From assembly GCA_965247635.1 (NCBI GenBank), contig CBDFHJ010000008.1, positions 252,381 through 316,380 of the forward strand: a DNA stretch of 64,000 bases, written 5' to 3'. Source of the DNA: Dehalococcoidia bacterium (lineage in GTDB: Bacteria; Chloroflexota; Dehalococcoidia; Lucifugimonadales; Australimonadaceae). Under the pieces are notes generated by a model that saw only the letters and a list, made by a program, of their open reading frames with translations, had not been told where the DNA came from and ran no database searches. Of the stretch, positions 2,385-63,966 are shown piece after piece (positions within the stretch are counted from its first letter, which is position 1; each line of letters opens with the position of its first letter). The position numbers were made by a program, and so were the translations under genes.

Positions 2385-3752
2385 GAGGTATCTTCAAGAA
2401 GTGTGTAAACAGTCAGGCGGTGTGCCCTCTCTCTGAACAACACGGGCTCGAGGCCCAAGAGAGGAGATAGACCGCCCATGAGGAAGGAAAGCACTGAGAG
2501 TAGGTCGGAGTCAAGGCCGGAGTGGGAGCAGTTGGAGGATTGGGTGCGAAGCCAGGTCCAGAGGCTGATCCAGGAGTTGCTGGAGGAGGAGGTGACGGCG
2601 TTTCTGGGAAGGGCGAAGTCGGCGCTCAGATCCGACTCGGACAACGATACCGGCTATCGGAACGGATACGGCAGAGCCCGGAGGCTTACGCTGAGTTCGG
2701 GAACGATACAGCTGAGGCGGCCGCGAGTCCGCGATACCGAGGAGCAGTTCGAGAGCCGGCTGCTGCCGCTGTTCGTCAACAGGACCAGGAAGGTTGCTGA
2801 GTTGATCCCCGAGCTGTACCTGCACGGTCTATCCGAAGGCGACTTCGATCTGGCTTTGCGGGGGCTGCTGGGAGAGGACGCACCGGTATCGGCGAGCACG
2901 GTGGCCCGGTTGAAGTCCAAGTGGAACGATGAGCTTGCCCAATGGCGCAGCCGGCCCCTAGATGACCTGGAAGTGGTCTACATGTGGGTGGATGGAGTCT
3001 ACGTCAAGGCTGGTCTTGAGAAGGAGAAGGCGGCAGTACTGGTGGTGGTGGCGGCCCTGAGCGACGGGAGCAAGGTGGTGGTGAGCGCTGTTCCCGGATA
3101 CAGGGAGTCCACAGAGAACTGGTCCGATGTGCTCAGGGACATGAGGCGCCGCGGGCTGGAGTGCCCGAGGCTGGTGGTTGGGGACGGACACCTGGGCATC
3201 TGGGGAGCTCTGCGCAACGTCTATCCGCAGGCGGCAGAGCAACGCTGCTGGAACCACAAGATCGTAAACGTGCTCGCCAAGCTTCCAAAGCGACAACAGG
3301 ACCAGGCCAAGCTCATGCTGCGTACTATCCCCTACGCGCCGACTCGGACAGAGGCTGAGCGGCTCAGGACGGTGTTCACCAGGTGGTGCGGCGACCATTC
3401 CTACGAGGCGGCCTCAGAGGCCTTGGAGCGGGACTGGGACCGCATGGTCACCTTCTATGACTTCCCAAAGGAGCACTAGGGGCACCTTCGCACGACGAAC
3501 CCGGTAGAATCACCCTTCGCGGCCCTCAGGCTTCGGACCGATGCCGCCAAGCGCTACAAGAGGGTCGATCGGGCGATAGCGGTGATCTGGAAAATGTTGA
3601 TGGTCGCCGAACAGCGCTTCAGGCGTCTGAAGGCCCCTGAGTTGATCGAAGACGTCTATCTCGGTGCACAGTATGCGGATGGAATCGCCATTGAGTCAAC
3701 GGCTGAGAAGGTCGCCGCCTGATGTCGTTTACACACCTATTGACGTAACCTC
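2385..3752 (+). mobile_element. IS256-family insertion sequence
   Basis: 26-bp imperfect TIRs (GAGGTATCTTCAAGAAGTGTGTAAAC at 2385 vs reverse complement of 3727-3752, 21/26 identical); 8-bp TSD CTGCGCGG at 2377-2384 and 3753-3760. Confidence 0.95.
2478..3722 (+). pseudogene. IS256 (Mutator) DDE transposase with internal TAG
   Basis: YRNGY, YMWVDG, VVGDG and QRCWNHK motifs. A TAG after ...FPKEH is followed in frame by GHLRTTNPVESPFAALRLRT...EKVAA*. Confidence 0.9.
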
Positions 3753-22629: not shown

Positions 22630-22709
22630 CGGCCCTTGGCAATCCGCCCTAGCAAGCTACTAAAAACAGGTTTTCGTGCTTCGACAAGCTCTCTGACCAG
22701 ACGAGACCC

Positions 22710-22913
22710 TGTCACCCTGAGCGGAGCGAAGGGTCTCTCGGGAAGGGCCGGTGAGAGATGCTTCGCCCCGATGAATCGGGACTCAGCATGACAGGGGGGC
22801 CTAGCCCGCGCCGTTCACCCTGTCCGATGACGCTCTGCTCATCGGACTCTCGATAGCTCCGACTTGTCGGAGCGTATCGGAGAGCGAAACCGAAGCGAAG
22901 GGCGGCGCGGGCT
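22710..22913. repeat. cluster of nested palindromic elements
   Basis: TGTCACCCTGAGC...GAAGGGTCTC and GAGATGCTTCG[CCCCGATGAATCGGGA]CTCAGCATGACA; then CCGTTCACCCTG[60-bp insert]AGCG...CGAAGGG. Confidence 0.85.
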
Positions 22914-22926
22914 TTTCATCACCTTG

Positions 22927-23832
22927 CTAGAGCCGGCCCTGGATGAAGTTGGTAATGACCCTGTCGTGCTCTTCGGGGTGCTCCCACTGGGGCCAATGCG
23001 CCGCGTCCTTCATAAGGTAATGCTTGGCGTCGGGGATGAGACTGGCGAGGTGTTCGCCTACCTCCGGAGGGTTGCTGGGGTTGAGCTCCGTCCAGAAGAC
23101 CAAGGTAGGCGGTTTCAGTTTCGCGCAGTCCTCCTCTTCGTAGCGTGCCCGGCGGCCACCCGGCGGCGTGCTGAGCGCGGCGGTGAAAGCGGTCCGCATC
23201 GCCTCTCGGACGTCCGGCAGGGAGTAGAGCTGCAGGCGCACCTCCACCAGCTCATCGGTCACCCGGTCGGGCGTGGTCATCAGCCACTCCAGGCGGCTGC
23301 GAATGGCGGCTGGGTCGAGGCTGTCCAGGGCCTCCAGGCCAAGGCGCATGGCGTTTTCCACCGGATTGAGCGGTGGCGGGAACGTTCGCTTGAAATTGAT
23401 CTGGGCGCCGGTGTTCAGGATGAGCTTTCCACACCGGTCGGGGTGCTCCAGGCCCAGCCGGAACGTGATGTGAGCCCCCATGGACTCCCCTTCGACGTGG
23501 GCCCACGGGATCCCCTCGACGTCCATGAGTTCGACGACGGCCGCTACCGCGTGCCCTTGCCGGTCGTCGGTGTCCTTGGGCTCCTTGCTGGAGAGGCCGT
23601 GATACAGGACGTCAATAGCGTAGACGTGGAACTCCTTGGCCAGGTTCATGACGTTCCGTGCCCACGCCTCAGCGTGGCCTCCACTGCCGTGGATAAGGAT
23701 GAGCGGTTCACCGGACCCTGCCTCGATGACGCGGGTGGTGTACCGCTCGCCTTCGACAAACCGGGTCTGGCTGCCCATCAGCTCCACGTAGATGGATCGC
23801 CATTTCGTCTCCGTGCCAACGTTTGCAGCCAT
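22927..23832 (-). CDS. alpha/beta hydrolase (meta-cleavage-product hydrolase-like)
   Basis: LIHGSGG, GESMG nucleophile elbow and AAHWPQWEHPE motifs. Confidence 0.9.
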   Translation of the reverse strand: MAANVGTETKWRSIYVELMGSQTRFVEGERYTTRVIEAGSGEPLILIHGSGGHAEAWARNVMNLAKEFHVYAIDVLYHGLSSKEPKDTDDRQGHAVAAVVELMDVEGIPWAHVEGESMGAHITFRLGLEHPDRCGKLILNTGAQINFKRTFPPPLNPVENAMRLGLEALDSLDPAAIRSRLEWLMTTPDRVTDELVEVRLQLYSLPDVREAMRTAFTAALSTPPGGRRARYEEEDCAKLKPPTLVFWTELNPSNPPEVGEHLASLIPDAKHYLMKDAAHWPQWEHPEEHDRVITNFIQGRL

Positions 23833-37083: not shown

Positions 37084-37382
37084 TGGCGTACCGGCGTGGG
37101 CTTGAGCGCGCTCCGTTGATTAAAAAGCGCTCGGGGCCCCTCAAGTAGGTCCAGGGCCGCGCTCTGGTGGCGTACCGGCGTGGGCTTGAGCGCGCTTGCT
37201 GTCCATCGGCCATTGGGACCCCGCAAGTGGGTGCCCCGACGAGTCGGGGCCAAGTAGGTCCAGGGCCGCGCCCTGGTGGCGTACCGGCGTGGGCTTGAGC
37301 GCGCTTGCTGTCCATCGGCCATTGGGACCCCGCAAGTAGGTCAGGGGAAACCCTGCCAAGTAGGTCCAGGGCCACGCCCTGG
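37084..37382 (+). repeat. three-unit modular repeat array upstream of uvrC
   Basis: TGGCGTACCGGCGTGGGCTTGAGCGCGCT at 37084, 37168 and 37277; CAAGTAGGTCCAGGGCC.CGC.CTGG at 37142, 37251 and 37357. Confidence 0.9.
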
Positions 37383-37394
37383 TACAATAGGCAC

Positions 37395-39587
37395 ATGGCC
37401 ACTGCCACCAAACCCCGCGACTTCGCCGGCCGGTTGAAGGCTACCCCCACGCAGCCTGGCGTGTACCTCATGCGCGACGTCAAAGGCGACGTCATCTACG
37501 TGGGTAAGGCCGCCAGTCTACGCAATCGCCTCCGCTCCTACTTCCAGACCCCCTCAGGTAAAGAAATCAAGGTCCAGCGCATGATGGGCCGGATCGCCGA
37601 CTTCGAGTACGTCGTCACCGAGACCGAATCGGAGGCGCTCATCCTCGAGAACTTGCTCATCAAGCGCCACAGGCCCTTCTACAACGTCCGGCTCAAAGAC
37701 GACAAGACCTATCCGTACATCAAAATCGACCTCAACGAGGAGTTCCCGCAGCTCTACTTCACCCGCCGGGTCCTGACCGACGGCGCCCGTTACTTCGGTC
37801 CCTTCGCCAGCGCCGGCTCCGTCCGCAAGACCATGGACCTGCTCAAGAAGCTCTTCCCCTACCGGTCGTGCACGAAGGTCATCACCGGCACCGACGAGCG
37901 CCCCTGTCTGGAGTACTACATCCACCGCTGCGTGGCCCCGTGCATCGGCGCCGTGGACCGCGACGAGTACCGGGAGGTCATCCGCCAGGTCATCATGTTC
38001 CTGGAGGGCGATACCGACCCGATCCTTCATGACCTGCAGCGCAAGATGCGGCTCGCCTCCGACTCCACGGAGTTCGAGCGGGCCGCGGCCCTCCGCGACC
38101 AGGTCCGCGCCATCGAATCGGTCACCGAAAACCAGAAGATCGCCTCCAGCAAGGACGAGAACGAAGATGTCCTCGCCTTGGCCGCTGACCGGGGCGAGGT
38201 GTGGGTCGGGCTGTTCAACATCCGACGCGGCAAGCTGGTGGGCCGCGACCACTTCATCATGGAAGGCGGCGAGGGTGAAGAGCCGCCCGCGCTGCTGGAA
38301 GGGTTTGTCCAGCAGTTCTACGACGACGCTACCGCCGTGCCCCCTGCCCTCCTGGTCCAGCACCCCATGCCCAACGCCGCGCTGGTGGAGGCGTGGCTCA
38401 CCGCCAAGCGTGGCGGTCGCGTATCGGTCCGGGTTCCCCAGCGAGGCGAGAAGCGGCGCCTGGTGGCCATGGTTGCCGAGAACGCCCAACAGGGCCTCGT
38501 CCAGCGCCGGATCAAGTGGCTCTCTCAGTCCGACCAAGTCCTGCAGGCCATGGGCGAAATCCAAGAGGCCCTAAGCCTGCCTGAGCTGCCCACGCGCATC
38601 GAGTGCTACGACATCTCCAACATCCAGGGCACCAACCCCGTCGGCAGCATGGTGGTCTTCGAGGACGGCCGCCCCAAGAGCTCCTACTACCGTCGTTTCC
38701 AGATCAAGACCGTGGAGGGCGTGGACGACTACTCCATGATGCAGGAGATGCTCCGCCGCCGCTTCAAGCGTCTGGGCGAGCAGCGCCAGCACGCGCTTCA
38801 CTCGCCAGGCCACACTGAGCCTGCCCTGAGCGCAGTCGAAGGAGTTGCCGAAGGGTCCCGCCTTGAAGAAGTACCCGTTCGTGGTGAGCCTGTCGAACCA
38901 CGAACTACTTCCGCTGAGGACGACGGCCAAGAGCCCTCCATGGGCACCGCCCGTGTCAAGCGTCGGCGTCGTCGCTACGCCCGCACCGGCGCCATGGCGC
39001 CCGACCAGCTGGCCGCTTGGGGTCCTGGGGGCGTGGCAAACGGCCCCGAGCATATCCAGGGTTCTGGGGGCGTGGCAAACGGCCCCCAGCAGGACAAAGC
39101 AAGCGTGACCCCGCAAGAGTCGTGGGGCTTGGTCCCCAGCCTGGTACTCATCGACGGCGGCAAGGGTCACCTCTCCGCGGTCCAGCAGGTCTTCCTGGAG
39201 CTGGGCGTCACCGACATCCCGCTGGCCAGCATCGCCAAGCAACAGGAGGAGATCTTCCTGCCACACCAGCCGGAGCCGGTACTGCTCCCGCGCGCCTCAC
39301 AGGGTCTGTACCTGGTCCAACGCGTCCGCGACGAGGCCCATCGCTTCGCCATCACCTACCACCGTCAGCGCCGCAGCAAGGCCTCCACCCGCTCCGCCCT
39401 CGACTCGGTGCCGGGCGTCGGCCCCAAGCGCCGACGTGCGCTGTTGCGGGAGTTCGGCAGCGTGCCCCGGATCCGTGAGGCCTCGCTCGACGAGCTGGCC
39501 GCCGTCCCCGGCATGACCACTGCCCTCGCCCACCGGGTCAAGGACGGGCTGGGGGGTAGGGACCAAGGCGTTGAGCGGCCTGCATAG
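37395..39587 (+). CDS. uvrC: excinuclease ABC subunit C with a ~110-aa insertion
   Basis: GIY-YIG domain (PGVY...IYVGKA), UVR domain, IECYDISN, LIDGGKG, RDEAHRFA and HhH motifs. Confidence 0.97.
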   Translation: MATATKPRDFAGRLKATPTQPGVYLMRDVKGDVIYVGKAASLRNRLRSYFQTPSGKEIKVQRMMGRIADFEYVVTETESEALILENLLIKRHRPFYNVRLKDDKTYPYIKIDLNEEFPQLYFTRRVLTDGARYFGPFASAGSVRKTMDLLKKLFPYRSCTKVITGTDERPCLEYYIHRCVAPCIGAVDRDEYREVIRQVIMFLEGDTDPILHDLQRKMRLASDSTEFERAAALRDQVRAIESVTENQKIASSKDENEDVLALAADRGEVWVGLFNIRRGKLVGRDHFIMEGGEGEEPPALLEGFVQQFYDDATAVPPALLVQHPMPNAALVEAWLTAKRGGRVSVRVPQRGEKRRLVAMVAENAQQGLVQRRIKWLSQSDQVLQAMGEIQEALSLPELPTRIECYDISNIQGTNPVGSMVVFEDGRPKSSYYRRFQIKTVEGVDDYSMMQEMLRRRFKRLGEQRQHALHSPGHTEPALSAVEGVAEGSRLEEVPVRGEPVEPRTTSAEDDGQEPSMGTARVKRRRRRYARTGAMAPDQLAAWGPGGVANGPEHIQGSGGVANGPQQDKASVTPQESWGLVPSLVLIDGGKGHLSAVQQVFLELGVTDIPLASIAKQQEEIFLPHQPEPVLLPRASQGLYLVQRVRDEAHRFAITYHRQRRSKASTRSALDSVPGVGPKRRRALLREFGSVPRIREASLDELAAVPGMTTALAHRVKDGLGGRDQGVERPA

Positions 39588-44722: not shown

Positions 44723-44807
44723 AGCGGTCCTCCTGGATTAAACTACCGGCCTCGACGCCGGCGTGCTCAGTATAGGCCTCCGTGTGACCGGCGAGTCTGT
44801 AAGGCCG

Positions 44808-45175
44808 CTCACCAGGGCGCGGCCCTGGACCCACGTGCGGTGTCCCCATCGTAATCTTGAGCGGAGCGTTTGCAAGCCCACGCCGGGTCGCCTCGACTTG
44901 TCGGTGGCGCCCTCACTAGGGCACGGCCCTGTCCGATGATGCTTCGCTCATCGAGACTCTCGATAGCCCCGATCTATCGGGGCTATCGGAGGACCTCCGC
45001 CTTAGGCGTGCGGTGTCCCCACCGTAATCTTGGGCGGAGCGTTTGTAAGCCCGCGCCGGACCGCCTCGACCAGCAGGCCGGCCGAAGTTTATCCTGAGCC
45101 TGACGAAGGGGGATGAGCCGGGTGAGTAAAATAGCTTCGGAGCTGGGGGCCGTTCGCCACGCCCCCAGACCCCAG
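44808..45175 (-). repeat. two-unit repeat array with nested insertions, plus a GGGGGCGTGGC.AACGGCCCC element
   Basis: Units at 44808-44897 and 44912-45070 share CAC.AGGGC.CGGCCCTG, GTGCGGTGTCCCCA.CGTAATCTTG.GCGGAGCGTTTG.AAGCCC.CGCCGG and CGCCTCGAC. Confidence 0.85.
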
Positions 45176-63890: not shown

Positions 63891-63966
63891 GTCCCAGTAG
63901 CTCAGTGGACAGAGCGGCTGCCTTCTAAGCAGCGGGTCGCGGGTTCGAATCCCGCCTGGGGCGCCA
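63891..63966 (+). tRNA. tRNA-Arg(TCT)
   Basis: Acceptor stem GTCCCAG/CTGGGGC, D arm TAGCTCAGTGGACAGAGC, anticodon arm GCTGC-CTTCTAA-GCAGC, GGTTCGAATC T loop, encoded CCA. Confidence 0.97.

Follow-up and report, generated by a model that had tools for sequence, protein, structure and literature searches.

A family of small two-hairpin modules nested in palindromic repeats of a Dehalococcoidia genome

Two units of equal length, each made of two hairpins, lie in different repeats of one genomic region and are preceded by the same five nucleotides, which raises the question of whether they are mobile elements and, if so, of what kind of enzyme moves them. The region is a window of 64,000 nucleotides, the whole stretch of DNA analysed here, which corresponds to C8:252381-316380 of a 2.81-Mb assembly in 10 contigs with a completeness of 93.5% (G000). 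A sequence-only reading of the window had described the units as 60-bp insertions 3' of CCCTG and had attributed their mobility to single-strand HUH (Y1) transposases. Both units were present as described, copy A at 22823-22882 and copy B at 44932-44991, each on the plus strand and directly 3' of CCCTG. In copy A, hairpin 1 (22823-22846) consisted of the arms TCCGATGA and TCATCGGA together with a single bulged base and a mini-stem, GC..GC, and hairpin 2 (22847-22882) read CTC(T)CGATAGC ... GC(G)TATCGGAG around the inner palindrome TCCGACTTGTCGGA. Its complete 60-mer had identical matches at three other places of the genome. Copy B belonged to a subfamily with TCATCGAGACTC and the inner palindrome CCCGATCTATCGGG, and was located in the spacer separating two minus-strand ORFs. 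Pairwise alignment of the two copies with 20 flank bases each gave a match that opened with CCCTG followed by T and closed with ...TATCGGAG, the flanks being unrelated. As single-stranded DNA, both copies were predicted to fold into two abutting hairpins on either strand; plus-strand folding energies were -20.2 and -21.5 kcal/mol for the two copies (z about -5.6), and none of 200 shuffled sequences was as stable.

Structure and distribution of the module family

The motif derived for the family was matched 43 times in this genome, versus no match of the same motif read backwards in any of the 301 genomes searched, and chance could therefore be excluded. Full long-form copies numbered 21 in the genome, and the canonical first hairpin was present in 48 copies; in nine further copies another TCC...GGA palindrome served as first hairpin, the second hairpin and both junctions being the same. 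Modules were about 42-74 bp long and had a common layout, a TCC-hairpin-GGA followed by a GACTC-hairpin-GAG. The copies of this genome were pooled with 65 loci fetched from other genomes, which gave 118 head matches; ten were dropped as chance matches or because of odd second hairpins, and 108 were parsed. Two size classes predominated, one of 41-43 bp (n = 42) and one of 59-62 bp (n = 50). The length of exactly 60 bp noticed earlier thus held for both window copies but not for the family, where it falls into one of two classes. In the short form, hairpin 1 is followed by GACTC(N)CGAC-nnn-GTCGGAG; a variant carrying GTCCCGAC..GTCGGGAC in the loop of its first hairpin reaches 54 bp. The long form, of up to 74 bp, has an extra palindrome within the loop of hairpin 2.

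Edges were highly uniform. All 108 parsed copies, which represented 85 distinct sequences, started with TCCG, and 101 of them ended with GGAG, in agreement with the earlier description of a non-autonomous element with exact boundaries. Among 29 distinct long forms, 97.8% of the cells paired in the two-hairpin structure versus 27-41% when the partners were slid. In hairpin 1, nine of ten pairs were invariant across genomes of several taxonomic families. Compensatory changes among the long forms (three pairs, 19 cells) all fell within the inner stem of hairpin 2, and the inner palindrome of this hairpin occurred with at least seven different stem sequences. Each hairpin contained a single bulged base, on its 5' arm. 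Linear and circular folds predicted for the type of copy A left no unpaired base at the ends or between the hairpins. A hammerhead-like reading of CCGATGA was rejected by eye because GATGA lies within the stem and a GAAA core is lacking.

The inner palindrome of the long form resembles a free-standing mini-palindrome, CCCGAY-n(2-5)-RTCGGG, which had 151 copies in the genome versus seven matches for the reversed control and which fills the loops of many host hairpins. One of these, CCCGATGAATCGGG at 22767-22780 of the window, is located in the loop of another host hairpin and is of the same kind as the one filling the loop of hairpin 2 in long forms. Nesting reached up to four levels, with a mini-palindrome in a module, the module in a host hairpin and the latter in an IS5-type MITE. 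The 43 motif copies of this genome were found on both strands (24/19), and many copies were intergenic. No association of copy orientation with local GC skew was seen (16/12 against 10/10), a skew that is itself weak in this assembly of 10 contigs. A solitary hairpin 1 of 22 bp was also observed at C9:49686-49707 of G000, following CCCCTG. No second hairpin accompanied it and its neighbours were ordinary genes; this copy may have been truncated or may be one-ended.

Of 301 genomes of the order, 17 were found to carry the module, and these represent 16 of 128 genera. The 13 other same-family genomes in this sample all lacked it; six copies were found in G003, a genome of the same family from outside the sample. 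In metagenomes, at least 121 module loci were found, including further hairpin 2 subfamilies. A single match in viral contigs, whose loop was AT-rich and which lacked a second hairpin, was read as a chance match. The spread of the family through Dehalococcoidia is patchy.

Filled and empty sites

Evidence for insertion was obtained by excising the 48 copies one by one in silico and by searching the joined flanks against the genome. A gap-free empty paralogue was found for 29 of them. Flank identity was 97.7% over 130 bases between the filled site C10:697008-697049 and the empty site C10:431712-431841, and 98.1% over 106 bases between C8:552499-552541 (filled) and C9:536080-536185 (empty). Two empty sites lie in the window itself. 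The first, at 22694-22789 on the plus strand with the junction 22719|22720 (CACCCTG^AGCGGAGCGAAGGG), was the best empty paralogue of the host of C8:553675-553734, to which it aligned without gaps through the junction at an identity of 95.8% over 96 nt; a filled duplicate of that site exists at C10:846060-846119. An empty CACCCTG^AGC site had indeed been noticed at 22713, but it had been assigned to the host of copy A, to which it does not belong. The second, read earlier as GGCCCTG^GACC at 44821, was correctly recognised as the empty site of copy B: the adjacent tandem unit (44794-44905, plus strand) aligned across the junction 44827|44828. Empty junctions of this type numbered 25 genome-wide. 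The host repeat of copy B is about 110 bp long and forms two tandem units (44794-45060), which are distinguished by the 60-bp module and, a short way downstream of the junction, by a 9-bp indel.

A 54-bp module was also found in frame within a HAD hydrolase gene (C10:123857-124603), where it adds 18 residues. These residues were missing from nine of nine orthologues of relatives, and no residue was duplicated. The same hydrolase contains a second insert of eight residues, GSSAGEPG, which was fully absent from eight of the nine orthologues, the ninth having two residues there. Another in-frame 54-bp module, at C9:466204-466257 of G000, was observed in a 175-residue ORF located directly downstream of an ORF resembling, by eye, a partial IS3/IS481-type transposase.

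Since near-identical repeats differed only by the module and the HAD insert was absent from orthologues, these data support insertion without target duplication, as had been proposed. The filled and empty pairs, the HAD orthologues and the tandem unit beside copy B left at most one ambiguous G, the one-base slide of the boundary that the sequence-only reading had correctly pointed out. Because this G is the sole ambiguity, a 1-bp duplication is indistinguishable from none. The same edges were retained in contexts without shared homology, for example CCTG^AGC loops, CAGG^GGGATGG close to a MITE terminus, the end of a CAGGGC..GCCCTG hairpin, TTCCG^AG, AGG^GGTGTCC hairpins (as in G052), GCCCTG^GACC and the HAD coding sequence. 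We consider it probable that the module is an independently inserted mobile element, mobile now or recently. A search of the assembly for the junction of an excised circle or tandem, GGAG|TCCGATG, gave no match. Public runs were identified through a 9.5-kb stretch with two further module sites, and four runs from one sample were compared with an 18-kb stretch with three module sites; all consisted of Logan contigs, which broke at each repeat, and none bridged a module.

Flanks of the 108 copies fell into 67 distinct contexts of 6+6 nt. A fixed 5' CCCTG target, as read from the two window copies, was not borne out because only 26 of the 67 contexts ended in CCTG; others ended in CAGG (12), TAGG (6), GAGG (5) or various tetranucleotides (18). 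Only the G at position -1 was constant (66 of 67 contexts). Position -2 was mostly T (32) or G (30), position -3 C (36) or A (27), position +1 G (31) or A (30) and position +2 G (47), which can be written as a local rule K-G^R-G at the junction. Inspection of the flanks by eye placed the usual insertion point at the 5' edge of a GC-rich hairpin loop, or just 3' of such a hairpin, and these host hairpins support the earlier view that the module sits in other palindromic repeats. About 15 or more mutually unrelated kinds of sites could be distinguished when flanks were grouped by eye. Many of the 67 contexts are related repeats. Moreover, much of the filled and empty variation among near-identical MITE copies could result from gene conversion rather than from fresh insertion, and independent insertions must consequently be far fewer than 67.

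Host MITEs and candidate mobilisers

Copy A lies within a composite of about 280 bp that resembles an IS5-type MITE (22649-22930, no strand assigned). The right end, the reverse complement of CTAGCAAGGTGATGAAAAG at 22912-22930, was found by the end-motif search; the left end, CTAGCAAGCTACTAAAAAC at 22649-22667, was read by eye and has five mismatches to the family consensus, which placed it under the search threshold. By eye, the two ends match at 14 of 19 positions. The CTAG of the right end overlaps the stop codon of a minus-strand alpha/beta-hydrolase ORF. The immediate host of copy A (gcgccgttcaCCCTG ... AGCGAAACCGAAGCGAAGGGcggcgc) had nine copies, and since all nine copies of this IS5-type MITE host carry the module, copy A is regarded as a passenger spread by hitch-hiking; no empty form of the host was found in the genome. 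Both window copies are thus inside host repeats, as had been read, but copy A is part of a larger fixed repeat, the nine-copy MITE, an outcome that the sequence-only reading had listed as counting against it, and copy B sits by itself in a different tandem repeat.

The ends of the MITE superfamily, CTAGCAGGSTGMTGAAAAA (CTAGCA(A/G)G..T.AAAA), were matched 77 times in the genome with at most four mismatches. They were mostly paired at distances of 130-270 bp, and three pairs lay about 1.36 kb apart (C7:303791-305148, C6:3111-4475 and C9:283427-284784). One of these longer units, which represent the parent IS, encodes a 372-residue protein with DUF772 and DDE_Tnp_1 domains, that is, an IS5-family transposase. 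Host ends match those of this resident 1.36-kb IS, which can move the IS5-family MITEs that carry modules. In this genome, much of the module copy number was shown to be due to hitch-hiking inside IS5-family MITEs. Across the sample, the MITE end was present in 12 of 17 module carriers versus 17 of 284 non-carriers (p = 2.6e-10, a value to be read with the reservation that related genomes are not independent).

Such a strong association between carriage and the MITE, the complete filling of the host of copy A, a correlation between module variants and host types and a loop homology common to most hosts (CCTG^AGC...CGAAGG) are all in keeping with a modular hairpin, itself immobile, which was acquired by a few repeat families in the distant past and has since been spread by MITE transposition, gene conversion and template switching. 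This explanation is nevertheless unlikely. It does not account for identical edges in contexts lacking homology, including the unique HAD coding sequence, nor for G062 and G052, which carry 21 and eight copies, respectively, without that MITE end. Template switching, furthermore, predicts variable edges or bases from the donor flanks, and neither was seen. The explanation that we prefer is that of a micro-element inserted in trans and amplified in part by hitch-hiking in MITEs.

In the window, a Pfam scan of 60 ORFs revealed only four kinds of nucleic-acid enzymes, an IS256-family transposase, a Xer-like recombinase, UvrC and RecJ. No mobiliser of the module's own was found there, in keeping with the earlier statement that the window encodes no mobiliser. 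The IS256-family ORF (Transposase_mut) is located at 2478-3476. An autonomous version was not found either: no copy longer than 74 bp with module ends existed among the 108, and no gene was bracketed by inverted module copies.

The Y1 hypothesis of the sequence-only reading implies a derivative of the PATE or REPIN type, moved by an IS200/IS605 TnpA or a RAYT that would be unassembled, extrachromosomal or too divergent for Pfam. Hairpins at both ends, the lack of target duplication and the single bulged bases in both stems would suit such an origin, as would the 93.5% completeness of this genome and a slight enrichment of Y1_Tnp among carriers (4 of 17 versus 23 of 284 non-carriers; Fisher p = 0.054, related genomes not being independent). 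On the other hand, 13 of the 17 carriers had no Y1_Tnp match. Pfam searches for this domain were negative in G000 and in the heavy carriers G025 (19 copies), G062 (21 copies), G003 and G096; three of these four are assemblies of 2-5 contigs. It had also been suggested that Y1 or RAYT genes flanked by the same hairpins be looked for; around the Y1 genes of the four carriers that have them (G052, G065, G072 and G079), no module-like hairpins were present within the 3-4.5 kb fetched around each. The 5' flank, moreover, is not one fixed tetranucleotide. Elements of the IS608 type use guide bases located 5' of the hairpin foot, and the hairpin feet of the module abut its ends, leaving no room for such bases. 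Y1 mobilisation therefore received no support from these searches, and we regard it as distinctly unlikely.

Other enzyme classes were surveyed in G000. The IS110 DEDD profile had no match in this genome, nor did the PDDEXK_3 profile, which would be expected for GxxExxY hairpin cassettes. For the TnpB zinc ribbon, one match below threshold was obtained, with an internal stop. The Y2_Tnp/IS91 profile had no match in G000 and none in control genomes either, so that this negative carries no weight. Serine recombinases gave 17 matches in this 2.8-Mb genome, and the loci of the two small ones were scanned, neither of which had a module. About 14 of the 17 fell in open reading frames that span 439-627 residues, a length typical of large serine recombinases. 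A Replic_Relax relaxase was rejected as mobiliser because it does not discriminate, being present in four of five carriers and in four of five non-carriers.

A DDE enzyme acting on the module itself deserves consideration because shifting the boundary by a single base turns the ends into exact inverted repeats, with a G on both sides of the filled site and one G at the empty site. The module could then be a very small MITE with 6-nt TIRs (TCCGAT ... ATCGGA) and a 1-bp (G) target duplication. We know, however, of no DDE family with a 1-bp duplication, the searches found no longer element with module ends, and these ends are unlike those of the resident IS5-type and IS256-type elements, so that we give this possibility little weight. 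Finally, although its stem sequence is strongly conserved across families and many of its copies lie between genes, the module is most improbable as a mainly selected cis-element (protein-binding site, terminator or RNA structure) kept for its function, given that only 17 of 301 genomes carry it, that it occurs in both orientations (24/19) and in a coding sequence, that no Rfam 15 family matches it (E up to 10 around copies A and B) and that exact insertions would be left unexplained. With the whole window included, Rfam 15 yielded only a tRNA at 63891-63963 and one chance-level match outside the module.

Proposed mechanism and comparison with known systems

The reading preferred above, namely that of a micro-element inserted in trans and partly amplified by hitch-hiking in MITEs, is in our opinion the best overall explanation of the data and is held with moderate confidence. 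According to it, the 60-bp unit would be the long form of a micro-element without a transposase. Predicted folds suggest that its single-stranded form may adopt a nearly closed dumbbell with the two host junctions side by side, because both hairpin feet lie exactly at the ends of the element. Insertion in trans would be carried out by a sequence-specific enzyme acting on this folded single strand. Such an enzyme may recognise the invariant stem of hairpin 1 together with the GACTC...GAG foot, and would cleave the DNA at both neighbouring junctions and join it again. Presumably, it would not be a recognisable Y1 (IS200/IS605 or RAYT), IS91 or IS110 protein. A single-strand strand-transfer mechanism of this kind is proposed only tentatively. 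It is more speculative still that the family belongs to an undescribed class of dumbbell single-stranded micro-transposons, whose enzyme, outside HUH Y1, IS91 and IS110, might recognise a pair of bulged hairpins and, without target duplication, place the element at the 5' border of the loops of other hairpins (K-G^R-G). The K-G^R-G rule is loose for a sequence-guided enzyme, and this counts against the preferred explanation.

Several known systems share part of these features. REP and REPIN sequences, associated with RAYTs (Y1 HUH), are short GC-rich hairpin repeats that are high-copy, non-autonomous and mostly intergenic, with inverted stem motifs (PMC2817692, PMC3337134, PMC3116915). The module resembles them in being short, GC-rich, hairpin-forming, high-copy, non-autonomous and mostly intergenic, and in its inverted stem motifs. 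It differs in that neither GTAG nor CGTC was seen by eye on either strand of its consensus, in that searches of this genome and of most carriers revealed no RAYT and no gene was flanked by the repeat, and in that its insertion point is exact to the base. As reported by Di Nocera et al. in 2013, CGTC-tagged REPs exist without an associated transposase, and GTAG-23 REPs of Thermomicrobium roseum (Chloroflexi) are located in CCGSSCC(n3-4)GGSSCGG palindromes, hundreds of which stay empty (PMC3733652). The module shares with the former the lack of a dedicated transposase and with the latter an insertion inside host palindromes of which many are empty. Unlike the repeats described there, it bears no tag, has two bulged hairpins versus one stem-loop, and its edges were established from filled and empty pairs.

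PATEs of the IS200/IS605 group have subterminal hairpins at their ends, produce no target duplication and insert beside a short motif on what appears to be single-stranded DNA. The module is similar in its imperfect hairpins at both ends, in the absence of target duplication (1 bp, a G, being possible) and in inserting beside a short motif on DNA that may be single-stranded. It is dissimilar in that its target is not fixed, its hairpins are terminal and no cognate TnpA was found. From DDE-derived MITEs it is distinguished by an inverted repeat of only 6 nt, a duplication of 0 or 1 bp and the lack of a parent IS in our searches. Among very small repeats, SDR4-6 of Nostocaceae, attributed to Elhai and colleagues in 2008, are reportedly nesting hairpin repeats without a known mobiliser. 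Rickettsia palindromic elements (RPEs) are very small hairpin repeats found in frame within genes (PMC3733652). Tiny nested hairpins, the lack of a known mobiliser and in-frame carriage are features that the module has in common with RPEs and SDR4-6. The sequence is unrelated, however, and the lineage (Dehalococcoidia), the two-hairpin dumbbell and the hitch-hiking in IS5-type MITEs set the module apart. The module family is closest in kind to small palindromic repeats of the REP or RPE type without a dedicated transposase. No description of it was found in the literature searched.

How the smallest palindromic repeats without RAYTs are copied, whether CGTC-type REPs, RPEs or small dispersed repeats of cyanobacteria, is an open question in the field. 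The present family offers clean material in this respect, with edges fixed to the base, many filled and empty pairs and one insertion into a unique gene. Its putative recognition features (the hairpin 1 stem, GACTC and the terminal GGAG) are strongly conserved, and the patchy distribution makes the family suitable for phyletic profiling aimed at the mobiliser. We consider the family of moderate interest, mainly as good material for identifying the kind of mobiliser on which such elements depend; should the mobiliser turn out to be a known protein, the family would be a well-defined but unremarkable new group of repeats. For the annotation of metagenome-assembled genomes of Dehalococcoidia, nested repeats are to be expected, including in-frame inserts of 18 residues in enzymes. 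In the window, the UvrC ORF (37305-39584) is 760 residues long and its matches to the RNase H endonuclease domain fall into two stretches; this ORF may hold an in-frame repeat insert.
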